Positions 112 to 53,501 of a stretch of 57,231 bases of DNA are shown in pieces (position 1 is the stretch's first letter; each line of letters begins with the position of its first letter). The stretch spans positions 1-57,231 of the IMG/VR virus record IMGVR_UViG_3300005512_000040; one strand, 5' to 3'. The position numbers and the translations under genes are program-made. The notes below the pieces were generated by a model, which saw only the letters and a list, made by a program, of their open reading frames with translations, searched no databases and was not told where the DNA came from. Source of the DNA: a virus. Its lineage: Duplodnaviria; Caudoviricetes.

Positions 112-248
112 GTCCAACGTGAAAGGTGACGGTCGATGAAAAGATGGATGTGCAACGAGTGCAACTCAATCAATGACGGACAGACAATGTGTTGGCGGTG
201 CGGGGCAAAGTCGCCCTTTTCATCGTACCGTCCACCGCCTTGTTCTGC
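112..248 (-). repeat. Long attC-like site (137 bp) containing the start of the next gene
   Basis: GTCCAAC-GTGAAA-GGTGACGGT-CGATGAAAAG...CTTTTCATCG-T-ACCGTCCACC-GCCTT-GTTCTGC; extra base in the right arm. Confidence 0.85.
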
Positions 249-456
249 CTGGGAGGTCGATTACGACATGTTCGAGCGTGACGACTACACCAAGAAGGAC
301 AAGATCGCGCAACGCCTGAACGACGGCTGGCTCGAAATGGGGATGCTGCCCTGGGTCGTAGAGGGCAAACACGCCGGGTTCCATGTATGGTGGAAGAGGC
401 AGAACGATCAAGCTCACGCTTCCCGCGTGAGCGGCGGCGAACGGGGGATAGCGTGA
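136..456 (+). CDS. Cassette protein with N-terminal Zn-ribbon (CxxC...CxxC)
   Basis: ORF starts inside the attC at 112 and ends inside the attC at 399. Confidence 0.7.
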   Translation: MKRWMCNECNSINDGQTMCWRCGAKSPFSSYRPPPCSAWEVDYDMFERDDYTKKDKIAQRLNDGWLEMGMLPWVVEGKHAGFHVWWKRQNDQAHASRVSGGERGIA

Positions 457-471
457 AGCGCCTGGTTCGAT
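399..471 (-). repeat. attC-like site (73 bp)
   Basis: GCAGAAC-GATCAA-GCTCACGCT...AGCGTGAAGC-GCCTG-GTTCGAT. Confidence 0.85.
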
Positions 472-5087: not shown

Positions 5088-5148
5088 CGCCAACGCCGGG
5101 GGTGTGCCTCGGCGCGGTAGCGACGTAGGCACCAGCCCTTTGTTGGGC
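5088..5148 (-). repeat. attC-like site (61 bp)
   Basis: CGCCAAC-GCCGGG-GGTGTGCCT...AGGCACCAGC-CCTTT-GTTGGGC; loop homologous to the site at 43847. Confidence 0.85.
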
Positions 5149-6019: not shown

Positions 6020-6075
6020 GCCCAACGTGCCCGTGAGCGGACCCGAAGGGGTACGCTCCACGGGGCTTGTTGGCA
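6020..6075 (-). repeat. attC-like site (56 bp)
   Basis: GCCCAAC...CGTGAGCG...CGCTCCACG...GTTGGCA. Confidence 0.85.
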
Positions 6076-6093: not shown

Positions 6094-6366
6094 ATGGATA
6101 GGCTATACAGCGTAACGATCGAATATCTTGGGATCAAGAAGCAGGACAAGTTCCCGGCGTCCACTATCTGCCTCGGCAAAGACGGTGCATTCCTTGTGAT
6201 GGACGGGCAAGGCGAATCTGTCCGATTCGTTGCCAAGGATTGCAAGGTCGAACAGATCGCCGCGCATGTGATTATTCTGCACGGGTACACCGACAAGCCG
6301 CGACACATCACGGCGTACTGCGTATATGCCAACGCCGAGGGTCAGTTTTCGGCGGAACGACGATAA
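6094..6366 (+). CDS. Cassette hypothetical protein
   Basis: GGAGG RBS; ends inside the attC at 6327. Confidence 0.7.
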   Translation: MDRLYSVTIEYLGIKKQDKFPASTICLGKDGAFLVMDGQGESVRFVAKDCKVEQIAAHVIILHGYTDKPRHITAYCVYANAEGQFSAERR

Positions 6367-6386
6367 ACTGCACCCTTTTGTTGGGT
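6327..6386 (-). repeat. attC-like site (60 bp)
   Basis: TGCCAAC-GCCGAG-GGTCAGTTT...AAACTGCACC-CTTTT-GTTGGGT. Confidence 0.88.
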
Positions 6387-6404: not shown

Positions 6405-6680
6405 ATGAGACTGGATGAAGTTGATAGAGCATGGATGATACGAGGCGCACACCACTTGGCAGCACGGCACCGCAAGCGGCATATCCCGCTGTGGTCATTC
6501 GTTGGGGCAGTGTGCTCCGTGGGCAGCACGTCGGCAACGATGATATGCCGCGAACTCGGATGGGACCCAAACGCGCCTGCGGACAGGGAACTTCCGTCAC
6601 CCAACGCTCCGGGTGAGGGTCGCGGTATTCCGCGTACCCTCGACCCGATTGTTGGCAGTTCTTCGGAGGGCACGGAATGA
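6405..6680 (+). CDS. Cassette hypothetical protein
   Basis: GGAGG RBS; reads through the attC at 6599 and overlaps the MTase start (ATGA). Confidence 0.7.
   Translation: MRLDEVDRAWMIRGAHHLAARHRKRHIPLWSFVGAVCSVGSTSATMICRELGWDPNAPADRELPSPNAPGEGRGIPRTLDPIVGSSSEGTE
6599..6657 (-). repeat. attC-like site (59 bp)
   Basis: ACCCAAC-GCTCCG-GGTGAGGGT...ACCCTCGACC-CGATT-GTTGGCA. Confidence 0.88.
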
Positions 6681-7375
6681 AACCATACTATCAAGATGAC
6701 GCGGTAACGATATACAACGGGGATTGCAGGGAGATTCTTCCGGCTATGACAGGGAATGTTGACATGGTTCTGTCTGACCCTCCCTACTTCGTCCCAGCAA
6801 ACTCCTACACTGGGAAGCGTGGCGAAGGCTATCACCGCAAGATGCTCGGCGACACTTCCATAATGGGTATGGCATTCGAGCTTGTGTTTGCGCACTACGT
6901 TGACCGTCTCGTATCTGACACCGGAACCTACTACGTCTTTTGTGACCCGCAATCATATCCGCATGTTTGGGCGTCTCTCTATCCGCTCTGCCATTCGACC
7001 AGGATGCTGGTATGGGACAAGATGACATCGTTCAACGGGTACACATGGCGCAGACAGTTCGAGTTGATAGCGTGGGCGAGTAAGCCGAACGCGCCGCGAA
7101 TCCCTACCGGGGACGGCGATGTGTTGCGGTGCCGGGCTGTGAAGGTTGGCGACAGGGAACACCCAGCAGAGAAGCCGCACGAACTCTTGCGGCAGTTGAT
7201 CGGCAAGCACGCTCCGACGTTGGTTCTTGACCCGTTCTGCGGGTCTGGCGCGGCGGTGGTTGCGGCCAAGACGTGCGGTGTACGAGCCGTGGGCATAGAG
7301 ATTGAGGAGCGTTACTGCGAACTGGCAGCGCGGCGATGCTCGCAGGAGATGGACTTTCATACTGCCAACACTTGA
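6677..7375 (+). CDS. N4/N6 DNA methyltransferase (beta class), cassette-borne
   Basis: DPPY...HPAEKP...LDPFCGSG. Confidence 0.92.
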   Translation: MKPYYQDDAVTIYNGDCREILPAMTGNVDMVLSDPPYFVPANSYTGKRGEGYHRKMLGDTSIMGMAFELVFAHYVDRLVSDTGTYYVFCDPQSYPHVWASLYPLCHSTRMLVWDKMTSFNGYTWRRQFELIAWASKPNAPRIPTGDGDVLRCRAVKVGDREHPAEKPHELLRQLIGKHAPTLVLDPFCGSGAAVVAAKTCGVRAVGIEIEERYCELAARRCSQEMDFHTANT

Positions 7376-8042: not shown

Positions 8043-9113
8043 TCATTCTGCCGCTCCTTTCGTCCATTCCGGCAATGCTGAGATTGCCCGTTCTGTCGCC
8101 TCTACCCCTATCCGCGTGTAATGGTCCATGATTGCCTTGCTGCCATGCCCGACGATCCCAGCCACAACGCTATCCGGCACGCCAGACTCGCGCATTTTCG
8201 TGACAAACGTGTACCGGAAGCTGTGCGACCCCACCATGCCATCCGTCGTGCTGCTTATGTGTAGCGTACGAAACAACCGCGAAAACGACCGATACACATT
8301 GCCATTGCGCGCCATGTAATCACTCGCCAGACCTGGAATCGCGTATTCTCGACCCATTCCGCACGAAACAAGCCGATCCCACAGCGCACGGTGCATACCC
8401 AACTCCACGCGCCTCCCCGTTTTCGCCTGTATGCGCCACATTCTGCGCCGGTCTAGGTCGATTTGCTTGCTGGGCCATGTCAGCGAATCGCCTACCCGCT
8501 GCCCCGTGTATGCCAAGACCATGCAGCACGTCAACAGTTCGCCGTCCGCCGCTCCCAGAATCCGCGCCAATTCCTCGTCCGTGAATGGCCGGTGTCCTCG
8601 CGCTGCCTTCGTGCTGAGTGTCGCGCACCCGTCAAATGGTGTCTTTACCGTGCGATTCCCGCTGCCCGTGCGTAATGCCGCCCTCAACACCTGGCGGCAC
8701 GCAGTTACGGCCAAATTGTGATAGCTGGCAGACTTGTCTAGGCTATCTAGCCACGCATCCGCGTCTGCCTCGCCTATTTCGTTGCAATTCGTGATTCCCG
8801 CCCGCTGGCACCACTCCGCAAATGCCGCCCACGCGCTGCCGTACGATCTGATAGTGTTTTCCGACGTGTTAGAACGCTTTAAACCGTCCTTAAAGGCGAT
8901 CCAAGCACTTGCGACGGGTATGAGTGCGGGTGCGGCGTCCGGCGGCTTTAAGGTGCATTTAATCGCCTCTAGCTGGTGCCACAGGTCGGCGCGCATGGAT
9001 TCGGCGCGCTCTGGGTCGTCGGTGTCAAGCGGGACGGAGAAGCGATACTCTACAGCATACCGCCCGTCCGTCCGCTTGTGTAGCCTGCCGCTGCCTTTGC
9101 GTGTGGTTGTCAT
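8043..9113 (-). CDS. int: Tyrosine recombinase / phage integrase
   Basis: YTGQR, QAKTG, HSFR, VGH, HY catalytic motifs; SAM-like domain (SENTIRSY); N-terminal arm-like segment. Confidence 0.92.
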   Translation of the reverse strand: MTTTRKGSGRLHKRTDGRYAVEYRFSVPLDTDDPERAESMRADLWHQLEAIKCTLKPPDAAPALIPVASAWIAFKDGLKRSNTSENTIRSYGSAWAAFAEWCQRAGITNCNEIGEADADAWLDSLDKSASYHNLAVTACRQVLRAALRTGSGNRTVKTPFDGCATLSTKAARGHRPFTDEELARILGAADGELLTCCMVLAYTGQRVGDSLTWPSKQIDLDRRRMWRIQAKTGRRVELGMHRALWDRLVSCGMGREYAIPGLASDYMARNGNVYRSFSRLFRTLHISSTTDGMVGSHSFRYTFVTKMRESGVPDSVVAGIVGHGSKAIMDHYTRIGVEATERAISALPEWTKGAAE

Positions 9114-9120
9114 TGGTTTT

Positions 9121-9318
9121 CTACTCGCTCGGCCACTCGTCACCGTCAACTTCTATGCCACACTTGCCCGCCATGTCAAGCGCACGGCATACCGCAAACA
9201 TGATGCTACCGCTGCTCGCCACAAGCCGCAGCCCGCCGTCCACATACACGCGCGACTGCCACTCGCCGGTAGCCAGGCGGGTAAGCGTGCCCGTGCCTTT
9301 CTGTATTGTCGTTGTCAC
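9121..9318 (-). CDS. Small protein resembling the integrase N-terminus
   Basis: GTG start after AAGGAG; TTTIQKGTGTLTR vs integrase TTTRKGSGRLHK. Confidence 0.55.
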   Translation of the reverse strand: MTTTIQKGTGTLTRLATGEWQSRVYVDGGLRLVASSGSIMFAVCRALDMAGKCGIEVDGDEWPSE

Positions 9319-10628: not shown

Positions 10629-10758
10629 CGTCTTTCTCCTAGTTTTGCGGAACGCCCAACGAGGCGCTCCAGGGGCAGTCAGATATTCCGCGCCGCCATC
10701 CGTCTTGTGGTAGTATAGTCGCTTGTGCATCGTGGCCTCCTGTTGTTGGTTGTTCCTT

Positions 10759-16860: not shown

Positions 16861-16934
16861 TGCGGGATAGTGTAGCGGCAGCACGCTGGGTTCATATCCC
16901 AGAGTCGGTAGTTCAAATCTACCTCCCGCAACCA
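16861..16934 (+). tRNA. tRNA-Met(CAT), initiator-like
   Basis: Full cloverleaf; anticodon arm CTGGG-TTCATAT-CCCAG with three G-C pairs; T arm GTTCAAAT; CCA end. Confidence 0.92.
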
Positions 16935-42205: not shown

Positions 42206-42254
42206 AACAACGACTCACCGACCAGACGTGCCGCTGGTCAGTTCGGTGTTGGCC
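42205..42254 (+). repeat. Unbulged 50-bp terminal site (attI position)
   Basis: AAACAAC-GACTC-ACCGACCAG-ACGTGCCG-CTGGTCAGT-TCGGT-GTTGGCC; homologous to the site at 44965. Confidence 0.7.
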
Positions 42255-42820
42255 TCTACCTCGTTGCCCCACACCGTCCAGCCGGGGCGGGCGCGGCGGG
42301 CGAACAGTTCAAGCCGTGGCCCGTCGCTCACCGTCTCGATCATGTCCTGAAAGAACTCCGGTTTCGTGCTGTGCGAGTTGTGCGGGCGTTTCACCTGCCA
42401 CCACGTCGAGTCCACGCGCCGCTTGCCTTGCGGCATCCGGCCCTTGCGCCCCAACAACAGGAACTCGCTCGTCGGGCAGAACAGCCCGCCTTGCCCCAGC
42501 CCTCGCGGTCGCTTGCACCAGGTCAACGCCTGGCAATACCGGAAGCCCCACGCCTGCATGACGCTGAAGGCTTCCGGCAGGTACTTCTGCGTTGTCCACA
42601 GGTACAGGTCGCAGTCATCAGCGGCGCATCCGGCAACCGGAAGCGCGGCAATCTCGGAAACCGGCATGGTCGGATAGGGCATGTCGTATTCGTGTCCGTT
42701 CGGTCTGCTTGCCGGAGTTGCGCGGCCCCACTTTCCGTATTGCCACGGCGGGTCTGCCACAATCGTCCGGAACCGACCGGAAGGCCAACCAAGAGGTGCA
42801 GCCGATTCGCTATCGCTCAC
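42215..42820 (-). CDS. MT-A70 family adenine methyltransferase, cassette-borne
   Basis: IVADPPW; YPTM; LYLWTT; WGFRY; HSTKP; RLELFAR...WGNE. Confidence 0.92.
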   Translation of the reverse strand: MSDSESAAPLGWPSGRFRTIVADPPWQYGKWGRATPASRPNGHEYDMPYPTMPVSEIAALPVAGCAADDCDLYLWTTQKYLPEAFSVMQAWGFRYCQALTWCKRPRGLGQGGLFCPTSEFLLLGRKGRMPQGKRRVDSTWWQVKRPHNSHSTKPEFFQDMIETVSDGPRLELFARRARPGWTVWGNEVEANTELTSGTSGR

Positions 42821-42841
42821 GGCTGACCTCCATCGTTCGGC
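42783..42841 (+). repeat. attC-like site (59 bp)
   Basis: GGCCAAC-CAAGA-GGTGCAGCCG...CGGCTGACC-TCCATC-GTTCGGC. Confidence 0.88.
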
Positions 42842-43095
42842 AACTCGTGAATACGCAGTGCCCACATACCATCGTCTCGCTCGTGCCACCTGCCAATGTT
42901 GATGCTCTGTCCGCCGTCGGTCTCGACCTCGACGAATCGGCCCGCTTCCGGCCCCGGAGGTCCATCGAAGACGATGTTGATTGCCGAGCAAGCGGATGGA
43001 GAACTACACGATGAAGGACGCAATCTGCATCCTCCCGGTCTCCCACATTCCGAACCCGTCCACTCCGTGCAATCGTTGTCGATGTCACACTTCAT
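42817..43095 (-). CDS. Cassette hypothetical protein
   Basis: Starts inside the attC at 42983; ...FDGPPGPEAGRFVEVE... Confidence 0.7.
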   Translation of the reverse strand: MKCDIDNDCTEWTGSECGRPGGCRLRPSSCSSPSACSAINIVFDGPPGPEAGRFVEVETDGGQSINIGRWHERDDGMWALRIHELPNDGGQP

Positions 43096-43121
43096 CGTGA
43101 GTCTCATCCTTTCCGTTAGCT
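42983..43121 (+). repeat. Long attC-like site (139 bp) with mutated R'' (AGC)
   Basis: GCCGAGC-AAGCG-GATGGAGAACT-ACACGATGAAG...CTTCATCGTG-AGTCTCATC-CTTTCC-GTTAGCT. Confidence 0.8.
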
Positions 43122-43375
43122 GCATACAAATGTTTCTCAAGTGATTCCCACTTGCAGGTACACGGCCCCTCTGCATCGTACCACTCATTGCACGGCTTAC
43201 AGTGATCACCGTAGAAAAGCAGCATTCGCACTAAGAGACGATTCTCTGCTTTGAGTTCGTCGATACTGCTAGCAGCCAACAACGGCTCGGACGGTACAGG
43301 AGAAACCGCGCTCAGGCAGTCCTCACAGAATCCGTCTTGCAAAGGTTTATTGTGAATCTTACACATCATCGTCAT
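43085..43375 (-). CDS. Cassette protein, Cys-rich
   Basis: RBS and start lie inside the attC at 43274. Confidence 0.7.
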   Translation of the reverse strand: MTMMCKIHNKPLQDGFCEDCLSAVSPVPSEPLLAASSIDELKAENRLLVRMLLFYGDHCKPCNEWYDAEGPCTCKWESLEKHLYAANGKDETHDEV

Positions 43376-43411
43376 GTCTGTTTCTCCTGCCCGTCAAGCC
43401 GAGCGTTCGGC
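43274..43411 (+). repeat. Long attC-like site (138 bp)
   Basis: AGCCAAC...GACGGTACAGGAGAAAC...GTTTCTCCTGCCCGTC...GTTCGGC. Confidence 0.8.
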
Positions 43412-43569
43412 ACTTCCGTCGATGTCGGATAGACGATTTCTGCCCCGCACTCTCTATCAGCGCACACCAAACGGTCATTATCCCAACCGCCGCCGTACAT
43501 CGAATGCATAATCTCACCGCAAATGTCACACGTCACCGGCGATTGCTTTGCCTTTTCAAACTGCGTCAT
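43372..43569 (-). CDS. Cassette Zn-ribbon protein
   Basis: CDIC...CADREC. Confidence 0.7.
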   Translation of the reverse strand: MTQFEKAKQSPVTCDICGEIMHSMYGGGWDNDRLVCADRECGAEIVYPTSTEVPNARLDGQEKQT

Positions 43570-43826
43570 GCGTCACCACCTGCCGAACAATCAGATTCGG
43601 CGGACGGAGTACCGCCGCTGATCTGCGCGTTGGCAACATCGGCCTTGCGGTCGAGCACCACAATGCACTCGTACTGCTGGACGTGGTATATGTCGCCATC
43701 GTCATGCCATACAACCCAAGCGTCACCCGTTGCACACGGGACGTGCTTGACTGTGCCTTCCAGCGTTTCGCCACCCGCCCAACACACCCGTACTCTGTCG
43801 CCCACTCTTGCGCCTGTATCAGCCAT
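43566..43826 (-). CDS. Cassette hypothetical protein
   Basis: GGAGG RBS; C-terminus encoded by the attC at 43582. Confidence 0.7.
   Translation of the reverse strand: MADTGARVGDRVRVCWAGGETLEGTVKHVPCATGDAWVVWHDDGDIYHVQQYECIVVLDRKADVANAQISGGTPSAESDCSAGGDA
43582..43635 (+). repeat. attC-like site (54 bp), near-identical to 46297
   Basis: GCCGAAC-AATCA-GATTCGGCGG-ACGGAGTACCG-CCGCTGATC-TGCGC-GTTGGCA. Confidence 0.88.
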
Positions 43827-43846: not shown

Positions 43847-43907
43847 TGCCAACAAAAGGCTTCAGCTTACGTCGCTATCGCGCCGAAGCTGAGCCTCGGC
43901 GTTCACA
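43847..43907 (+). repeat. attC-like site (61 bp)
   Basis: TGCCAAC-AAAAG-GCTTCAGCTT...AAGCTGAGC-CTCGGC-GTTCACA. Confidence 0.9.
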
Positions 43908-44964: not shown

Positions 44965-45014
44965 CGCCAACGATTCATTGACGGGACGTGCCGCCCGTCA
45001 ACTCGGTGTTGTGC
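44965..45014 (+). repeat. Unbulged 50-bp terminal site (attI position)
   Basis: CGCCAAC-GATTC-ATTGACGGG-ACGTGCCG-CCCGTCAAC-TCGGT-GTTGTGC. Confidence 0.7.
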
Positions 45015-45226: not shown

Positions 45227-45286
45227 ACCCAACAAGACAATTCACGCTATCGGCGTTCCGCCGAATCGTGATTGTTAGCGTTGTGC
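45227..45286 (+). repeat. attC-like site (60 bp)
   Basis: ACCCAAC-AAGAC-AATTCACG...CGTGATT-GTTAGC-GTTGTGC; loop homologous to the site at 6327. Confidence 0.85.
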
Positions 45287-46284
45287 GTCAAAGGCAACAG
45301 CCCCTGCCGCAGTTCGTTTTCCAGCCGCGCCCGCGCAGATTCAAACTCGCGCTCGTCCTTTTCCACGCCGACAAACCGCCGCCCGGTCTTGATGCACGCC
45401 AGCCCGGTCGTGCCCGACCCCATGAAGCAATCCAACACCGTATCGCCCGGATTGGTCGTTGTCTCGACGATTCTTTGCATGAGTTCCAATGGCTTCGGCG
45501 TGGCGTGCCCGTTGGCTTTCGCGGGCGGGTATTGCCATACGCTCGACACTTTGCCGGGGTTGTTGAACGTCGGGCGGAGATGTTCGTACTCGCGGCGCAG
45601 GTCGTCGTACTCGCGGCGCAGGTCGTCGTAAGTTCTCTTTAATGGTAGGATTTTCCCCAATTCCGAATAGAGTTGCTTGTCGCATAAATCCCACCGCCGC
45701 CCCTTATTCCACCCGATTTTATACGACGCATGAACACGGACGCTCTCTTCGGTGGTATAGCGCCCGTCTCGCCTAAACACAGCATGCACGTCCTCTTTTG
45801 TTCTTCCGCTCAAATCAAAGGCAGCAAGAAAATACTCTCGCAACGGGCGACAAATGGCGTTCTGATCTGTCCACTGCCCGTCGTCAGCGTGGTAGACGAT
45901 GTACTCGGCCAGCTTCGCGAATGAACGCAGTAGTGGGCTATCTCGCGCGGCATACAACTGCGAATGTGCTTGCTCTGGTGCGTATTTATCCCACGTCACC
46001 CAGTTTTGCATCGGTCGCCCGTGCCGCTCGATGATTCGCGCAATGTCGGCCAGCACCAGCGGCTCAGAGTGGAAACACCAGAACGCACCTTGCCGCTTGC
46101 ACCCCCTTGACGCCGCCGCAATCCACGACTCGCACCATTCGAGGTAGTTGGGTATCTTGTCCCATGCCGCCTTGCCAATGTTGTACGGCGGGTCAGTCAC
46201 AACGGCGTCGCACTCCACTGGTAGCACGTCTAGGCAGTCGCCACGGATGATGGTCACATCGTCAGATAGTTTTACCGCTTTCAT
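45247..46284 (-). CDS. N4/N6 DNA methyltransferase, cassette-borne
   Basis: TDPPY; HATPKP; LDCFMGSGTT; YDDLRRE heptad repeats. Confidence 0.92.
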   Translation of the reverse strand: MKAVKLSDDVTIIRGDCLDVLPVECDAVVTDPPYNIGKAAWDKIPNYLEWCESWIAAASRGCKRQGAFWCFHSEPLVLADIARIIERHGRPMQNWVTWDKYAPEQAHSQLYAARDSPLLRSFAKLAEYIVYHADDGQWTDQNAICRPLREYFLAAFDLSGRTKEDVHAVFRRDGRYTTEESVRVHASYKIGWNKGRRWDLCDKQLYSELGKILPLKRTYDDLRREYDDLRREYEHLRPTFNNPGKVSSVWQYPPAKANGHATPKPLELMQRIVETTTNPGDTVLDCFMGSGTTGLACIKTGRRFVGVEKDEREFESARARLENELRQGLLPLTHNANNHDSAERR

Positions 46285-46286
46285 GA

Positions 46287-46778
46287 TCAATCCCTCGCAC
46301 AACAATCAGATTCAGCGGACGGAGTACCGCCGCTGATCTGGGCGTTCGCAACATCGCACGGCTTCCCGCACTCGGTACACTCGTGCCAGCGCGTTACGTT
46401 GCCGCGCACGACAACAGGCGCGTGACAGCAGGTGGAGGACTTGCCATCAATGCAGATTGCCGCACTTGCGTCCCAACCCTTGCGCGCCGTAACGTCGTTC
46501 AGCCACGCAACAAGCTCGTCTACGCTCTTGATTACCACAGCCTGACCGCGCCACGCCTCGTGCCACTCAACCTGCAACTCGTTCAGTTTCGACTTGCTCG
46601 GGCACTTGCTGCCGTCCTTTACTTCAACCAGGTAGTTGCGCCCGCTGTGCCCGACCAGCAAGTCGGGCACACCAGCACCGACAGCCTTAAGGTCGCACAC
46701 CGTCGCACCAACCTTGCGCAGTACGTCCACAATCTGCTTGTGATTGGCGTCTGGTTTGCCGTACTTCCTTGCGTTCAC
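46287..46778 (-). CDS. VRR-NUC-like nuclease with Cys-rich C-terminal extension
   Basis: DANHKQIV..LR..G...GVPDLLVG...LVEVKDG. Confidence 0.85.
   Translation of the reverse strand: MNARKYGKPDANHKQIVDVLRKVGATVCDLKAVGAGVPDLLVGHSGRNYLVEVKDGSKCPSKSKLNELQVEWHEAWRGQAVVIKSVDELVAWLNDVTARKGWDASAAICIDGKSSTCCHAPVVVRGNVTRWHECTECGKPCDVANAQISGGTPSAESDCCARD
46297..46350 (+). repeat. attC-like site (54 bp)
   Basis: GCACAAC-AATCA-GATTCAGCGG-ACGGAGTACCG-CCGCTGATC-TGGGC-GTTCGCA. Confidence 0.88.
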
Positions 46779-48788: not shown

Positions 48789-49021
48789 CCGTGCAGCACC
48801 TTTGCCGCGACGGTCTGCACGTCGAACCGCAGCTTGGCCACGCGGTCGGTTTCGTCGATGGTGCATGGCGCGGCGATGGCACGCACGTCAATCATTACGT
48901 CGCCAACGTCGAGCGGTATGCAACACGCAACGCCCTTGCTGCCGTCAAACCTCTTGAACTCGAATGGCTTTCCTCGGTGCAGCCTGTTGCCAGCCTCGAC
49001 CATTTTGTTTGCGTCAGTCAT
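48758..49021 (-). CDS. Hypothetical protein
   Basis: AGGAGG RBS; ends inside the attC (WNGKDDTPK). Confidence 0.6.
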   Translation of the reverse strand: MTDANKMVEAGNRLHRGKPFEFKRFDGSKGVACCIPLDVGDVMIDVRAIAAPCTIDETDRVAKLRFDVQTVAAKVLHGWNGKDDTPK

Positions 49022-49126
49022 TTGGTTGTCCCTCCTGTCAACATGCGCAAACCATAGCACAACTGGCCGCCCGTGCAAGCGAAAAGTTTGCCGAAAATCA
49101 CGACGAAAAAAAATGCAGAAAGGGGG

Positions 49127-49156
49127 TTGACAACATGCAGCGGCGTGGGCTATTGT
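49127..49156 (+). promoter_or_regulatory. Sigma70-like promoter in the divergent control region
   Basis: A-tract, then TTGACA-N18-TATTGT. Confidence 0.55.
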
Positions 49157-49567
49157 TCGCGTGTCGACTGGGAGAAGCAGCAAGGAGGAGGCACCATGAG
49201 CACGACCGCAGAAAACAAGCAACAGCATCCTCCCGAGTGGGTGGAGCGCGCCATATTCGTTCTTGCGTTTGTCGGCGCGGTCTGGTGGGTTTGCGAAGTG
49301 GCGGCGCGTATGTTCGTGCCGTGGAACTGACGAGGGAGGATTGGTGTGGCAAACACTAGGAGGACCGACCATGCGACGGCTAATCCGAAAAGCAATACAG
49401 TGGTTCGAGATGGCGAGGGGCCTATGGTATCTCGCAAACCTGCCAACAGGCGAGTGGGAGTGCGCGGACGGCAGCACGCCAGAGGGCGCGTACAGGGGAA
49501 AGCAGTGCGGGGATGTGTGAGAACGCTGGCATTGAGCGGACAATGAAGCCGCAGAAGGAGGACTGAC

Positions 49568-49825
49568 GTGGACAACAACGATGGCGCGGCTTCATTGGTA
49601 CGCTCGGATGCTTTGTTGGGCTCCCTGTTCGACGGAGCGGCATACGTCGGCATTCACAAGAACGCAGCAGGGCGCATCACGCTTGTCGTCAATCACGGCG
49701 ACGGCTCCATGCGGACCTCGTGCAGCAAGAAGGGCCTCAGCTACGCGGACAAGCTGATTGAGTGCCGCAACCGTTTGTCCGAGACGCCCAACGCCGGGAG
49801 TCACCGGCAGGAGGAAGCGCGATGA
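49568..49825 (+). CDS. Cassette hypothetical protein
   Basis: AGGAGG and GTG inside the attC at 49518. Confidence 0.65.
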   Translation: MDNNDGAASLVRSDALLGSLFDGAAYVGIHKNAAGRITLVVNHGDGSMRTSCSKKGLSYADKLIECRNRLSETPNAGSHRQEEAR

Positions 49826-50103
49826 GGGAATGGGTTTGCAAACGATGTGGAACGTTCAACAGAGGAGTCCCGCGTTGCGAGAGATGTTGCGCGCTTCCTC
49901 CTGTACGGTCGGACTCCTTGTTCGATGTCCTGGTGGCTATTGTCAACACGGCGCAGACATGCCCCGACCGCTGCATGGCTGACGTGTGCAACGACAACTT
50001 CGCCGTGCATGGCGTGAACCTTCGGGCCGAGATGACCGACAACGAGGACGCGCCGGTCAGGATCGAGAGGACATCGAACGACAGCAATGAGCGGCAGCTT
50101 TAG
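49822..50103 (+). CDS. Cassette protein with N-terminal Zn-ribbon
   Basis: WVCKRCG...CERC encoded in the attC loop. Confidence 0.7.
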   Translation: MREWVCKRCGTFNRGVPRCERCCALPPVRSDSLFDVLVAIVNTAQTCPDRCMADVCNDNFAVHGVNLRAEMTDNEDAPVRIERTSNDSNERQL

Positions 50104-50157
50104 CTGTACGCTCCATTGGCCTTGTTGGGCAATCCCAGCGAGGCCGGAAAGGACAAG

Positions 50158-50451
50158 ATGAGACTGAGACGACAGATTAGACGGATGATGAGCCCGGTTG
50201 ATATTCTCCAATTCAGCCAGTTTACGATCGACTGGTTACAAGAGTTAGACGAGGCTGACGCGCACGGCGATACGACCGGCGACGAGCAGACTGACAACCT
50301 CGCCCTTGCCTACGAAATCGACACGATCCGCGAAGTCTTGCGCTACGGCAGCGACAAGGCGCTGTTCGATATGATGGCGGCATACGCACGGATCTGTATG
50401 CCCAACGATGATCCTCACGTTTCCGACGTGAGCACAGCGAACAAAGGATAA
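50158..50451 (+). CDS. Cassette hypothetical protein
   Basis: Ends PNDDPHVSDVSTANKG inside the attC. Confidence 0.65.
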   Translation: MRLRRQIRRMMSPVDILQFSQFTIDWLQELDEADAHGDTTGDEQTDNLALAYEIDTIREVLRYGSDKALFDMMAAYARICMPNDDPHVSDVSTANKG

Positions 50452-50606
50452 CGTGGAGGATTTTGTTGTGTGTCCGCGATGCGAAGAATGGAGCTTGCCA
50501 ATGTGCCTGATACGGACAACAGATGACGCATTGGTTGGCATGGGAATATCCGTAGCCCATGCATCGGGTGTGACTCCCGGCGCGGACTCCTTTTGTATAC
50601 ACAACG
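50400..50606. repeat. Duplicated cassette, copy 1
   Basis: 207 bp identical to 51502-51708 except one base seen (50408/51510). Confidence 0.95.
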
Positions 50607-50644
50607 TCCGGCCTGACGCGCCGGGCGAGAAAGGTGCGACATGA
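50453..50644 (+). CDS. Cassette peptide, copy 1
   Basis: GTG start inside the attC; CPRC motif. Confidence 0.6.
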   Translation: MEDFVVCPRCEEWSLPMCLIRTTDDALVGMGISVAHASGVTPGADSFCIHNVRPDAPGEKGAT

Positions 50645-50982
50645 CCAAGGCGGCTATACCCGGTCGCGTCGAGGCCGTTGTTCTCCACCTGGTTCTGACG
50701 CACCATTGGTTCGACGAGATGATCGCCGGCCGCAAGTGGACCGAGTACCGCAAGGTTACGCCACACTGGACGCGGCTGATATGGGACCGCCGCGACAAGA
50801 TCACGCACGCCCGGTTCAGCCGGGGCTACACGGCGCAGCGGATCATCCGCCGCGTGGAGCAGATCACGATAGGCCCGTGCCCCTACGACGGGTGGCCGGG
50901 GCAATACTACCGCATAGACCTCGGGGAGGTCCGTGTGGAGAACGACCGTCTTCACGGTCGAGGAAAGAGCGATAGCGAATGA
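50641..50982 (+). CDS. ASCH/PUA-like domain protein, paralogue 1
   Basis: LHLVL..HWFDEMIAGRKWTEYR...FSRGY. Confidence 0.8.
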   Translation: MTKAAIPGRVEAVVLHLVLTHHWFDEMIAGRKWTEYRKVTPHWTRLIWDRRDKITHARFSRGYTAQRIIRRVEQITIGPCPYDGWPGQYYRIDLGEVRVENDRLHGRGKSDSE

Positions 50983-51188
50983 CGAGTACCGTGCAAGACT
51001 TGGTTGTGCCCCTGTGGCCGTCCCGTTGCTTCTGGGGCTTCTGCCGGCACGAGATTCGCAAAGGTCTTATGTTTCGCTACTGGATCACGCTTCCGGCGAT
51101 CTGGCAGCGCGAACTGCAATTCCGCCGCGAGCTGACAGAGTGTTTGAATGGGCACAACGATTTGAATGAGGGGCGCAATGAAGGATAA
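50979..51188 (+). CDS. Cassette hypothetical protein
   Basis: ATGA-coupled inside the attC at 50937. Confidence 0.6.
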   Translation: MTSTVQDLVVPLWPSRCFWGFCRHEIRKGLMFRYWITLPAIWQRELQFRRELTECLNGHNDLNEGRNEG

Positions 51189-51313
51189 ATGTTCCGCCAA
51201 TGCTGATGAACAAGCCATGGGCTTGAGGCAGGACGGTCGGTCAGTTGACCAGCCTTCATTGCGTACCCTCCATTCTCTTGTTGGGCATCCAAATCAATGA
51301 AAGGAACACGACC

Positions 51314-51553
51314 ATGCTGATTACGATTCCACTGAGACGAACGTATCTTGTACTGAGCACCTGCAACCGATTCCTGCACGTCTACCTGTCGCGTAACGCT
51401 ACGCCGTGGCATCACTCCCGCGTCAGCCTGTGGGGGCGGCGCAAATACAACCGCTACGCAGCGCACGTCGGGGACGACGGTTGCTGCTGCGAATCCTGTA
51501 AGCCCAACGCTGATCCTCACGTTTCCGACGTGAGCACAGCGAACAAAGGATAA
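51314..51553 (+). CDS. Cassette hypothetical protein
   Basis: AAGGA RBS; ends PNADPHVSDVSTANKG. Confidence 0.6.
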   Translation: MLITIPLRRTYLVLSTCNRFLHVYLSRNATPWHHSRVSLWGRRKYNRYAAHVGDDGCCCESCKPNADPHVSDVSTANKG

Positions 51554-51708
51554 CGTGGAGGATTTTGTTGTGTGTCCGCGATGCGAAGAATGGAGCTTGC
51601 CAATGTGCCTGATACGGACAACAGATGACGCATTGGTTGGCATGGGAATATCCGTAGCCCATGCATCGGGTGTGACTCCCGGCGCGGACTCCTTTTGTAT
51701 ACACAACG
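51502..51708. repeat. Duplicated cassette, copy 2 (ORF 51555-51728)
   Basis: See copy 1. Confidence 0.95.
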
Positions 51709-51724
51709 CGGAGGTGACTGGACG

Positions 51725-52045
51725 ATGAGAGCGACAGCGAACAGCGGTACAGTCCACCGTCTTGTTCTCCACCTTGTCCTCACGGGAAGGTGGTTTGACA
51801 TGATGATGGGCGGTGTCAAAGACGTTGAGTATCGGGCAATCACGGAGCACTGGACGCGGTTGATTTGGAATCGCCGCGACAGGATCACACACGCCCGCTT
51901 TGCACGCGGGTACACGAAGGAAACCATCTTGCGTCCAGTGCGTCGCATCGACATTGGATCGTGTCCGTATGACGGATGGGATGGCGATTACTACAGGATT
52001 CACATGCCACCGATACAGGTGGAGAACGATGGGCGTCAGCCTTGA
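51725..52045 (+). CDS. ASCH/PUA-like domain protein, paralogue 2
   Basis: LHLVLTGRWFDMMMGGVKDVEYR...FARGY. Confidence 0.8.
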   Translation: MRATANSGTVHRLVLHLVLTGRWFDMMMGGVKDVEYRAITEHWTRLIWNRRDRITHARFARGYTKETILRPVRRIDIGSCPYDGWDGDYYRIHMPPIQVENDGRQP

Positions 52046-52104
52046 GCGAATAGCGAATAGGCTGGACGCCTTTGTTGGGCGGCCGGTCAGAAAGGGAAAC
52101 AACG

Positions 52105-52350
52105 ATGAAACTGTGCAAAGACTGCAAATGGCGTGACGGACACAGGTGCGTTGCGCCGCAAAACTCTTCCGGAGTTGACCCGGTTGACGGCGGCAAGGCG
52201 TCTGGATGGATTATGACGTGCCAGGCGCAACGCACTGGAACGTTTACGGGGTGGTTTTGGTGCCGCGTAACAAGGCTGTGCGGGAAAGAGGCTAGATGGT
52301 TCACGCCCAACGTAGCGCTCACGAGCGCCGACGAAGGAGGCGTATCGTGA
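52105..52350 (+). CDS. Cassette Cys-rich protein
   Basis: MKLCKDCKW...C...CGKEARWF. Confidence 0.7.
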   Translation: MKLCKDCKWRDGHRCVAPQNSSGVDPVDGGKASGWIMTCQAQRTGTFTGWFWCRVTRLCGKEARWFTPNVALTSADEGGVS

Positions 52351-52544
52351 AGCGCATGGTTGTGCGTCTGCTTTGCCGCCACGACTGGCGCGAACATACC
52401 GTTCTCGGAGTTGGGGATCACGAGTTTTCCGATCTACGCTCTTGCACCAAATGCACGGCCAGCAAGCTCTTGTTTTCTGGCACGCGGAAACAGTGGAGAC
52501 AACATCACGGCTACGATACGCACAACATTGCAATATCGAGTTAG
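52347..52544 (+). CDS. Cassette small Zn-binding protein
   Basis: AGGAGG and GTG inside the attC at 52305; LCRHDW...CTKC. Confidence 0.65.
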   Translation: MKRMVVRLLCRHDWREHTVLGVGDHEFSDLRSCTKCTASKLLFSGTRKQWRQHHGYDTHNIAISS

Positions 52545-52607
52545 GTTTCTTGCTGAACATGCGCAACCATCTACACGGCAACAGGCTACATAGAATGAGA
52601 GGGCAAC

Positions 52608-53501
52608 ATGGGAGATAAGGCACACGTGACGAATGGCGGCGGGAGGCCCTGGCGCATCCTTCTGGACGTGGACGGGGTACTGGCTGACTTCTACGGCGGG
52701 GCGTGCAGGGTGCACGGGGTTTCCAGGGAATCGCTCCCGGTGGGCCAGTGGGAGATGAGGCACGGTATGGGCATAAGTGAAGCTGCCTTCTGGGAGCCGC
52801 TGGACAACTACGACTTCTGGGTGGGGCTGCAAAAATACCCGTGGGCCGATAGTCTTGTGGCCTGCATGAAAACGGTTGCGGACGTGACGTTCTGCACCAC
52901 GCCATCCGTATCGTCGGACTGCCACAAGGCTAAGATGGACTGGATTCGTAAGCACTTCGGGGATGACGCCAAGGTGATGCTTGGCTCGCAGAAGTATCTC
53001 ATGGCCGCTCCGCGCCACATCCTGATTGATGACTACCACGCCAACGTGGACAAGTTCATTGCCGAGGGCGGCAAGGCCATCCTGTTTCCGGCCAGATGGA
53101 ACAAGTTACATGCAGTCCAAAAAGACAATGTTGATCACACCATCGACATCCTGAGTGCCATCATACAGGAATCCACGACCCCGCCCCCAATTTTCCCCGA
53201 GGGGGCGAGCGAGCGGCATGAATACCCTGTGTTCACGGGCCTGCTGGCTTATTTCCCGAGGGCCTGCGCGGCGGTGGCGAACGTGAGTTTCATTGGAAAT
53301 GAGCAGCATCAGCCGGGAGAGCCCATGCACTGGGCCAAGGAAAAGAGCATCGGCACAGGGGACCAGGTGGTCAGGCATACCATGCAAGGGGTGCTGGAGG
53401 GGTCCGCGTATCATTTGGCGCAGGCCGCTTGGCGGGCACTGGAACTGCTGGAGCGCAAGCTGTGCGGGATGCCGCCGTTCGGGGATCAACGTAGTGTTTG
53501 A
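52608..53501 (+). CDS. HAD 5'(3')-deoxyribonucleotidase-like domain fused to a DUF5664-like (dATP/dGTP diphosphohydrolase-like) domain
   Basis: LDVDGVLADF...CTTP...K..W...LIDD; then FPRA..AVA.VS..GN.QH.PG...W...RH...HLAQAAWRAL. Confidence 0.78.
   Translation: MGDKAHVTNGGGRPWRILLDVDGVLADFYGGACRVHGVSRESLPVGQWEMRHGMGISEAAFWEPLDNYDFWVGLQKYPWADSLVACMKTVADVTFCTTPSVSSDCHKAKMDWIRKHFGDDAKVMLGSQKYLMAAPRHILIDDYHANVDKFIAEGGKAILFPARWNKLHAVQKDNVDHTIDILSAIIQESTTPPPIFPEGASERHEYPVFTGLLAYFPRACAAVANVSFIGNEQHQPGEPMHWAKEKSIGTGDQVVRHTMQGVLEGSAYHLAQAAWRALELLERKLCGMPPFGDQRSV

Follow-up and report, generated by a model that had tools for sequence, protein, structure and literature searches.

A covarying family of attC-like hairpins spans small-gene junctions in a tailed-phage contig and has start codons inside its long members

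Can one stretch of phage DNA serve at once as a recombination site, as coding sequence and as a switch in messenger RNA (mRNA)? The question is raised by four sites, E1, S2, S3 and E2 (Table 1), in the IMG/VR virus record IMGVR_UViG_3300005512_000040, taken as a whole (57,231 bp, linear, representing an estimated 70% or so of its genome), which was analyzed over its whole length and is called the window here. Recombination sites of the attC type are usually seen as non-coding signals 3' of a gene. An earlier reading of the letters alone (the sequence-only reading) took the four sites for attC sites with long loops, in which a gene starts, a zinc ribbon is encoded and the translation start is hidden until an upstream ribosome opens the structure. 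We find a covarying family of hairpins with attC-like geometry that is tied to gene orientation and has start codons inside its long members, and we find that relatives cease to be homologous at the AAC and GTT ends of these hairpins and at the base of the loop. Judging from the sequence, the elements are probably integron-type recombination hairpins, or a close functional analogue, in which the folded strand is the sense strand, gene junctions are in-frame asparagine (Asn) codons, and consecutive genes are coupled in the mRNA by termination and reinitiation.

Both by reading of the sequence and by a search for inverted repeats, the four sites are imperfect hairpins that span gene junctions, at the coordinates given by the sequence-only reading. 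In a gapped search, the arms 49797-49821/49890-49917 of E2 score 15, the top of 116 matches with a spacer of 30-130 nt; E1 (128-143/216-232) scores 13, S2 (42994-43016/43090-43109) 11 and S3 (43297-43306/43380-43389) 10, and the spacers of the four repeats measure 68-73 nt. E2 includes inverted arms of 14 nt (49808-49821 and 49890-49903) that are 100% complementary and 68 nt apart. The claim that the variable loops hold a gene start and an N-terminus also stands: the upper stem contains the start codon or the Shine-Dalgarno (SD) sequence, the loop contains the first 23-27 codons, and each of the four starts overlaps or closely adjoins the stop of the upstream open reading frame (ORF). A fifth long hairpin, E6, had been missed by the sequence-only reading, as had about 20 short members of the same family. 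The weakest member is S2, with GCT instead of GTT at its 3' end and with four irregularly spaced cysteines. Folded as RNA over their whole length, E2 (-62.0 kcal/mol, z -3.64) and, on the minus strand, S3 (-52.6 kcal/mol, z -3.62) are each matched in stability by 0 of 200 dinucleotide shuffles, E1 (-44.6 kcal/mol, z -1.24) by 22 of 200, and S2, again on the minus strand (-46.9 kcal/mol, z -1.41), by 19 of 200. E1 and S2, which are not outstanding in folding energy, are supported by the covariation of the family. MAFFT and RNAalifold did not recover the structure from the four sites alone.

That family has at least 25 copies in the 57-kb contig, at the junctions of small genes. The junctions next to the long sites carry shorter hairpins with equal ends, 5' (GCC)CAACG and 3' (C/T)TTGTT(GGGC) on the coding strand, and all short hairpins read there have an extra base in the 3' arm. 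We condensed these features into a strict descriptor, consisting of AAC, 1-8 nt, two successive stems with a minimum of 4 bp each, separated by a bulge of 1-2 nt on the 3' arm, and, at the end, 0-6 nt followed by GTT, with Watson-Crick pairs only. It matches 17 times on the plus strand and 4 times on the minus strand of the window, compared with 0-3 times per strand in ten shuffles, and AAC/GTT ranks first among the 64 complementary triplet pairs (19 matches, median 3). The bulge lies on the 3' arm of the local gene strand in every match except 10651-10754, which is situated in a region of minus-strand genes and is probably a false hit. In relatives, matches fall on the gene strand only, and in 23.9 kb of unrelated phage loci there are none. 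When the descriptor is mirrored, so that the 5' arm is the bulged one, it yields just the known elements, read on the opposite strand. Allowing G-T pairs and mismatches raises the background to 2-7 matches per shuffled strand, and significance was therefore taken from the strict version. Descriptor matches and additions by eye together make up a curated set of 39 elements, 25 from the window and 14 from relatives. From AAC to GTT they measure 42-134 nt (50-142 nt including the heptamers), and the distribution is bimodal, with 42-80 nt for the short and 127-134 nt for the long members and few intermediates (96 and 112 nt).

Cruder approaches were less informative. Counts of simple motifs (GTACCGTCC with one mismatch, RYCSAACG and YTTGTTS) showed no enrichment or a weak one, scans by loose duplex energy and by constrained minimum free energy were rejected as too noisy to define the family, and MAFFT misaligned the arms of the short members. 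A degenerate 3'-arm pattern led to six loci; in the two that were viewed (L026 and L027), three of four descriptor matches resemble family members. The exact 36-nt arm of the element at 49522-49621 had no match in viral contigs or genome contigs.

The hairpin structure is under selection. In a MAFFT alignment of the 13 long elements, with the structure derived from E1, 88.3% of cells are paired, and this value falls to 41-47% when the partners are slid by one to three columns. Two-sided changes occur at 14 of 21 pairs, and the covariation score was reached by 0 of 500 shuffles. Among 36 non-redundant elements, the 5' arm has its own 3' arm as best partner in 23 cases, and the coding strand is more stable than its complement in 33 of the 39 elements with RNA parameters and in 32 with DNA parameters. 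As the 3' arm is translated in three different frames among different elements, the conservation is at the level of nucleotides and not of protein.

The view that the sites are homology breakpoints between relatives was borne out by the loci of P0001 and P0002 and, as a supplement, by metagenome contigs. For P0001, the protein that starts in E1, nine homologues and seven metagenome loci were found. The core of this family, from ...SAWEV to ...WWKRQN, is nearly invariant, and beyond the Asn no part is shared. In their DNA, all six distinct loci diverge right after CAGAAC, into six different family elements, and the upstream limit of the conserved part is the TTGTTC of the hairpin. The cassette of P0002 behaves likewise: relative L002 shares it at 97% identity between CCCAACG and the following GAAC, and outside these limits the two are unrelated. 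The computed count has the AAC in the frame of the longest open stretch upstream for 30 of 39 elements, which becomes 32 once two coordinates are corrected (13 expected). The AAC is read as an Asn codon of the upstream gene, whose last codons and stop would come from the next element. Logan contigs from four metagenome runs (four studies), short and compared with 49400-52700 at 85% likeness, have loose ends at AAC boxes (49784-49792, 50077/50080, 50944 and 51705) and at GTT boxes (49621, 49924, 50677 and 51005/51006) among 24 of 170 loose ends; these may be taken as supporting evidence only.

The same region holds a near-exact direct repeat of about 210 bp (50397-50606 and 51499-51708), both ends of which lie, by eye, at CAACG motifs. 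It consists of one short hairpin element and a 57-aa ORF containing CPRC, and each copy is followed by a different phrog_625 paralogue. The mid-length element at 49522-49621, with an SD sequence and a GTG start in its loop, is the sole element covered by contigs in all four metagenome runs, and the flanks in these contigs are dissimilar; in two of the runs its summed word depth reaches 66 and 176. It is also the first element after the sole promoter-like site, and similar mid-length elements occur in other IMG/VR contigs (L026, 1735-1823 on the minus strand; L027, 5000-5097 on the minus strand).

Variation of a second kind affects the apical part of the long members. Two relatives, L019 and L021, have upstream genes that are 85-100% identical and share both arms and at least 130 nt of cargo at 100% identity, and their loops of about 68 nt are at random identity; the overlapping ATGA is kept in both. 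Neither loop is, by eye, the reverse complement of the other, and inversion was rejected as the cause of the difference. L003 has the arms and the cargo of E2 with a different leader of four cysteines (Cys4), and contigs in three of the four runs join 49825/6 to 49890 through 28-35 other letters, that is, with shared arms and a different loop, on short sides. That the loops are translated fits the comparison well, for unrelated loop sequences in relatives retain an in-frame ATG and often four Cys.

The proposal that long loops encode a four-cysteine module holds for four of the five loops in the window and for eight of the 13 when relatives are included; it does not hold for long loops in general. 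Within the first 30 residues, four or more Cys or His are encoded by eight loops and 0-2 by the other five. Homologous cargo indeed occurs both with and without the module: six of ten N-termini in the P0001 family have at least four Cys, in four different arrangements, and four have none. One of the latter is a fusion with the upstream gene that has no hairpin. It is found in L020, a Joint Genome Institute (JGI) metagenome locus, at about 1180-1340, where the upstream gene is fused in frame to P0001-type cargo (P0014, 126 aa) and the element is absent; L020 is a natural variant without the hairpin. Since five of 13 long loops and four of ten N-termini in the P0001 family lack it, the Cys4 module is frequent, not defining. 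As for its possible reading as a small zinc ribbon (RanBP2 type), the Cys-x2-Cys pattern is present in E1 and E2, and in Pfam these two sites have matches below threshold (E 0.03-0.06; Zn_ribbon_RanBP with 13.2 bits versus 27, Zn_ribbon_3 with 13.3 versus 27) and S2 and S3 have none. AlphaFold2 models are weak overall (mean pLDDT, the predicted local distance difference test, 58 and 62); residues 1-30 of P0001 are the most confident part of its model (73-79), with short strands, and the N-terminus of P0002 reaches 42-49. Cys-x2-Cys pairs are also present in small array ORFs outside the hairpin loops (43372-43569 on the minus strand; 51555-51728, 52347-52544 and 2-139 on the plus strand), suggesting that Cys-rich small proteins are a general feature of the array regions.

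Sequestration of the start and coupling by termination and reinitiation are predicted from folding and from the arrangement of stops and starts. In the long elements the upstream stop overlaps or adjoins the next start. The stop of the AAC frame and the next ATG overlap exactly, as ATGA, in seven of 13 long elements. In others the offsets are -5, 8 and 8 nt (G1a, L17a and L18d), in E6 and S2 the offset is 20 nt from the earlier ATG and about 8 nt from the ATG in the stem, and for G1d the automated count used another frame. The suggested pairing of the SD sequence or the start with the other arm is likewise predicted by folding: from -15 to +3, the mean unpaired probability at the five long-element starts of the window is 0.065-0.246, compared with a median of 0.43 (quartiles 0.31 and 0.57, minimum 0.123) in 47 other genes that encode 100 aa or more. 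The short elements are mostly placed after the upstream stop and ahead of the next SD sequence, which they leave free, making the predicted masking specific to long and some mid-length members. A scan of 48900-52700 found one promoter-like site, with 1.5 expected from shuffles, and none per element. Its position upstream of the array (Table 1) fits a polycistronic array.

How close are these hairpins to attC sites? In the parts of Nivina et al. (2016, PMC5027507) that deal with attC structure, the recombinogenic bottom strand begins with 5'-RYYYAAC, with crossover between A and C, and ends with GTTRRRY at its 3' side; near L'' there are extrahelical bases, usually G at position 16 and T at position 23/24, separated by a 6-bp stem; the unpaired spacer has 5-6 nt, the terminal structure is variable, and the total length is 57-141 bp. 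The attC-like architecture seen by the sequence-only reading is confirmed by the parsed elements, which have AAC and GTT ends and, on one arm, unpaired bases at attC-like positions. Counted from the 3' end, 32 of 36 elements have their first unpaired base at position 15-17; the second stem, of 4-7 bp, extends to position 22-23, likewise in 32 of 36, and T or TA comes next in 30 of 36. AAC and GTT are invariant in the 13 aligned long elements, save for the one GTT that is GCT. The lengths of the elements fit the attC range, with its variable terminal structure. Repeats of the Vibrio cholerae integron measure about 120-130 nt.

A calibration is offered by Tetrasphaera phage TJE1 (NC_019930), for which Qi et al. 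(2023, PMC9892861) describe an attC cluster with three sites and four ORFs; two TJE1 sites were recombined by IntI1. Our descriptor finds sites at 248-289, 1020-1071 and 1466-1515, directly after orf1, orf2 and orf3 and downstream of the annotated terminator; their match to the published cluster was judged by position relative to orf1-orf4 and the terminator, not by coordinates. They parse like the elements of the window (spacers 3/3, stem 5, bulge 1, stem 6), with one difference: the bulged strand is the non-coding one in TJE1 and the coding one in the window. From these likenesses we infer that the four sites are long-loop members of an attC-like family bounding small accessory-gene cassettes, in other words an attC cluster without an integron integrase.

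Clusters of this kind (CALINs) are known from phages (PMC9892861), and in the features described there the window resembles them in the imperfect hairpin with 5' AAC and 3' GTT, in the unpaired bases of one arm at about 16 and about 23, in the variable terminal loop (50-142 nt in the window), in arrays of single small ORFs without promoters of their own, and in DNA methyltransferase genes among the cassettes (45247-46284 and 6677-7375 in the window). It differs from them in that the site precedes its gene instead of following it, with genes on the bottom-strand-like strand, and in that the upstream gene uses the AAC as a codon in its own frame and the next start lies inside or just after the site. 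RYYYAAC and GTTRRRY are mostly missed and the spacer is shorter. The contig has about 25 sites, whereas the part of PMC9892861 that bears on numbers gives only a minimum, two sites per cluster. A further parallel are the long attC sites of sedentary chromosomal integrons, described in the relevant part of PMC5027507 as having large branched terminal structures; the long members of the window, at 135-142 nt, also have a large apical part, and sequence motifs are common to the sites of one array. In the window, however, the apical part is protein-coding (the start and 23-27 codons) and is replaced between close relatives. As for mRNA, a summary in PMC8876359 of Jacquier et al. (2009) describes attC hairpins in integron mRNA as a ribosome barrier, which is overcome through a short ORF within attC and through termination followed by reinitiation. 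Judged by that summary, the hairpin in a polycistronic mRNA, the ORF within the site and the stop adjoining the next start are alike in the window, and E6, with its 40-44 aa ORF, is exactly like the short ORF inside attC. The difference is that the ORF of the long phage elements encodes the cassette protein's own N-terminus and that the phage mRNA carries the bottom-strand sequence.

Several observations weigh against the integron-type interpretation. No integron integrase was found in the window or in the relatives G001 and G002 (all fragments), where the best scores are 18.6-29 bits and the cut-off of TIGR02249 is 265. Only 9 of 39 elements have RYYYAAC and 10 of 39 have GTTRRRY, many elements being one or two positions off the heptamer consensus (CACAAC or GTTCTGC, for example); spacers are mostly 3-6 nt on the 5' side and 0-5 nt on the 3' side, below the published 5-6 nt; and the first unpaired base is, in this parse, mostly C or A and not G. 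The genes are on the bottom-strand-like strand, the opposite of TJE1 and of canonical cassettes. Homology breaks at the GTT end too, not at the AAC end alone, and the joints in the Logan contigs have short sides of 18-30 nt at 85% likeness. E1 and S2 as whole segments fold no better than shuffles. Stops within the element are common in every frame (34, 23 and 27 of 39), and a stop in frame 0 is consequently neither strong nor specific evidence.

Some of these points speak for the main rival, which we regard as unlikely: the hairpins would act in RNA only, for example by being cut by an RNase, by binding a phage protein or by serving as translational operators, and the mosaicism would stem from homologous recombination between short conserved repeats without a site-specific recombinase. 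Recombination of this type is documented for PeSLs, promoter/stem-loop cassettes of T4-type phages that recombine between repeats, in the relevant section of Arbiol et al. (2010, PMC2839356). PeSLs, as portrayed there, are alike in being repeated stem-loops that flank small accessory ORFs in plastic regions and mark points of modular shuffling. An action in RNA would account for an orientation that follows transcription (save at the probably false 10651-10754), for the greater stability of the coding strand, and for paired SD sequences and starts with tight coupling of stop and start; the AAC in the upstream reading frame would be a regularity at the level of translation, and both the breakpoints at either end of the element and the missing integrase in the window, G001 and G002 would be expected. 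It does not explain the conserved AAC/GTT pair, and most short members lie upstream of the SD sequence without masking it. The positions of the unpaired bases match the bottom strand of attC, and a descriptor built on them finds the three expected sites of TJE1. Moreover, a PeSL consists, in that section of the paper, of an early promoter and a terminator, whereas the elements of the window have no promoter of their own (1 site, 1.5 expected), have AAC and GTT termini with attC-like bulges, and overlap coding sequence.

It is improbable that the elements are small non-autonomous mobile hairpins, either like miniature inverted-repeat transposable elements or associated with IS200/IS605 palindromes, that were inserted at gene junctions by a transposase encoded elsewhere than on this fragment. 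Near-identical 46-nt copies do exist on the minus strand (43586-43631 and 46301-46346, 2.7 kb apart), 49522-49621 alone is covered in the four metagenome runs, between dissimilar flanks, and breakpoints occur at both hairpin ends. Most copies, on the other hand, keep only the architecture and differ in sequence, the upstream reading frame is preserved, and a scan of the ORFs revealed no transposase. Moreover, the element contains the start codon of the next gene, which speaks against a simple insertion.

Still less probable is a function as intrinsic terminators or attenuators between early genes. The GC-rich stems are followed by a short T-rich stretch (TTTGTT or CTTGTT), and a terminator scan (GC-rich stem, loop of 3-8 nt, T run) flagged sub-hairpins of three elements, but it found just 6 sites where 3.3 were expected, none of them a whole element. 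The T run is short and interrupted, the long members enclose about 70 nt of coding sequence, and some 11 consecutive elements within 2.9 kb of one operon would abolish expression. Chance, or a by-product of symmetric Cys-x2-Cys coding, deserves next to no credit: two of the four sites are indeed no more stable than shuffles as whole segments, but the arms lie outside the Cys motifs, five of 13 long elements lack Cys4, the 3' arm is read in three frames, and the reading is contradicted by the strong enrichment of the descriptor over shuffles, the rank of AAC/GTT and the strong covariation.

Integron-type recombination combined with translational coupling suggests the following model. Each element has, on the coding strand, a 5' AAC, a short spacer, a stem of 4-7 bp, 1-2 unpaired bases on the 3' arm only, a second stem of 4-7 bp, a T or TA left unpaired, an upper stem with its loop, both variable, and a 3' GTT. 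At the DNA level, cassettes would be exchanged at the AAC that is read as the upstream Asn codon, and each gene would receive its last few codons and its stop from the next element. With the crossover at an in-frame Asn junction, any cassette could follow any other. At the RNA level, the hairpin would form in the polycistronic mRNA, and the ribosome on the upstream gene would read into the 5' arm, terminate on the next start codon or within about 20 nt of it, melt the stem that hides the SD sequence or the start, and thereby allow reinitiation. In the long members, the apical 64-73 nt contain the start and the first 23-27 codons; this hypervariable part is replaced between loci that are near-identical elsewhere and often, not always, encodes a Cys4 leader resembling a zinc ribbon.

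The remaining features of the window are those of a tailed phage, as indicated by PHROG matches. They include an HNH endonuclease, a primase/helicase, a ParB-like protein, several DNA methyltransferases and a RecE-like exonuclease, as well as the phage tyrosine integrase listed in Table 1. In a long block of large plus-strand ORFs at about 13.5-42 kb, matches to head and tail proteins are sparse (head decoration, tail assembly chaperone, virion structural protein), and the GC content is 56-61%. The HNH region of the endonuclease at 1612-2229 on the plus strand matches the NCBIfam IscB model with 60 bits (cut-off 175), probably through a merely shared HNH domain. Three DNA methyltransferase genes directly adjoin family elements (45247-46284 and 42215-42820 on the minus strand, 6677-7375 on the plus strand), and the first of them has elements on both sides, like a cassette. 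An Rfam scan of the window at gathering thresholds yielded tRNA-Met alone (16861-16934), and the hairpin elements matched no family. JGI contig L015, 100% identical across the P0001 gene, stops within 1 nt of the first base of the window; the shared end may be where the genome really ends, or a repeat may have broken the assembly there. Close relatives were not found in the phage collection searched with DNA queries, the P0001 protein-seeded scan of viral contigs and the A4 cargo profile run against genome contigs gave no match, and a scan seeded with the 297-aa neighbouring protein gave distant loci only, without elements.

Table 1. Hairpin elements, proteins that start in them, and other features of the window
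Feature	Coordinates	Strand	Remarks
E1 (site 1)	112-248	+	ATG 136 in upper stem; loop encodes W-x-C-x2-C...C-x2-C (CNEC..CWRC)
S2 (site 2)	42983-43121	-	ATG 43095 in upper stem; loop C-x5-C-x7-C-x5-C
S3 (site 3)	43274-43411	-	SD-like AGGAG in upper stem; ATG 43375 overlaps upstream TGA; CKIH..CEDC
E2 (site 4)	49786-49926	+	14-bp perfect upper stem with SD GGAGGA; ATG 49822 overlaps TGA of upstream ORF; loop CKRC..CERC
E6 (fifth long hairpin)	51152-51286	+	ATG 51178 in upper stem; 40-44 aa ORF in loop, one Cys
P0001	136-456	+	Variable N-terminus, residues 1-36; conserved core to KRQN (AAC 403-405); tail from next element
P0002	49822-50103	+	Relative L003 keeps hairpin arms and C-terminal part, with other Cys4 loop
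P0003	43085-43375	-	Start in S3, end in S2
P0004	42817-43095	-	Start in S2, end in element 42787-42837; C-terminal part matches phrog_28893
Family member	403-467	+	AAC to GTT
Family member	5092-5144	+	AAC to GTT
Family member	6024-6071	+	AAC to GTT
Family member	6331-6382	+	AAC to GTT
Family member	6603-6653	+	AAC to GTT
Family member	42787-42837	-	AAC to GTT
Family member	43586-43631	-	AAC to GTT
Family member	43851-43903	-	AAC to GTT
Family member	44969-45010	-	AAC to GTT
Family member	45231-45282	-	AAC to GTT
Family member	46301-46346	-	AAC to GTT
Member of plus-strand array 49522-52361	49522-49617	+	AAC to GTT
Member of same array	50077-50126	+	AAC to GTT
Member of same array	50404-50467	+	AAC to GTT
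Member of same array	50603-50682	+	AAC to GTT
Member of same array	50941-51005	+	AAC to GTT
Member of same array	51506-51569	+	AAC to GTT
Member of same array	51705-51766	+	AAC to GTT
Member of same array	52025-52076	+	AAC to GTT
Member of same array	52309-52361	+	AAC to GTT
Sigma-70-like promoter match	49127-49156	+	Sole one upstream of plus-strand array; consensus match only
Phage tyrosine integrase	8043-9149	-	PHROG match; TIGR02249 score 29 bits, cut-off 265; not an integron integrase

What is already known is that phages carry attC clusters (PMC9892861) and that attC hairpins and short ORFs inside them affect translation (PMC8876359). A full-text literature search returned no paper on arrays of bottom-strand-side genes, on an in-frame junction codon or on protein-coding terminal loops that can be swapped. 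A bolder version, which we offer tentatively and do not count as probable, is that an environmental phage lineage possesses an inverted, translated integron cassette system, with genes on the bottom-strand side, standardized in-frame Asn junctions, borrowed tails and stops, the next start within the site, and the apical loop as a nested exchange unit that swaps short N-terminal modules, often zinc ribbons, between proteins. If this were true, one stretch of DNA would at once act as a site of recombination, couple translation and shuffle modules. Phage attC clusters were first described in 2023, and if the main reading as integron-type elements with coupled translation is right, the window, with about 25 sites in a 57-kb contig, would be a dense example, useful for questions about the origin of integron cassettes. 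It would also be a natural test case for the control of translational coupling by attC hairpins in mRNA. More generally, a structured recombination site could then lie fully within coding sequence and follow a common frame standard, by which any two cassettes would join productively, and small phage proteins would have a route to gain or exchange N-terminal modules.

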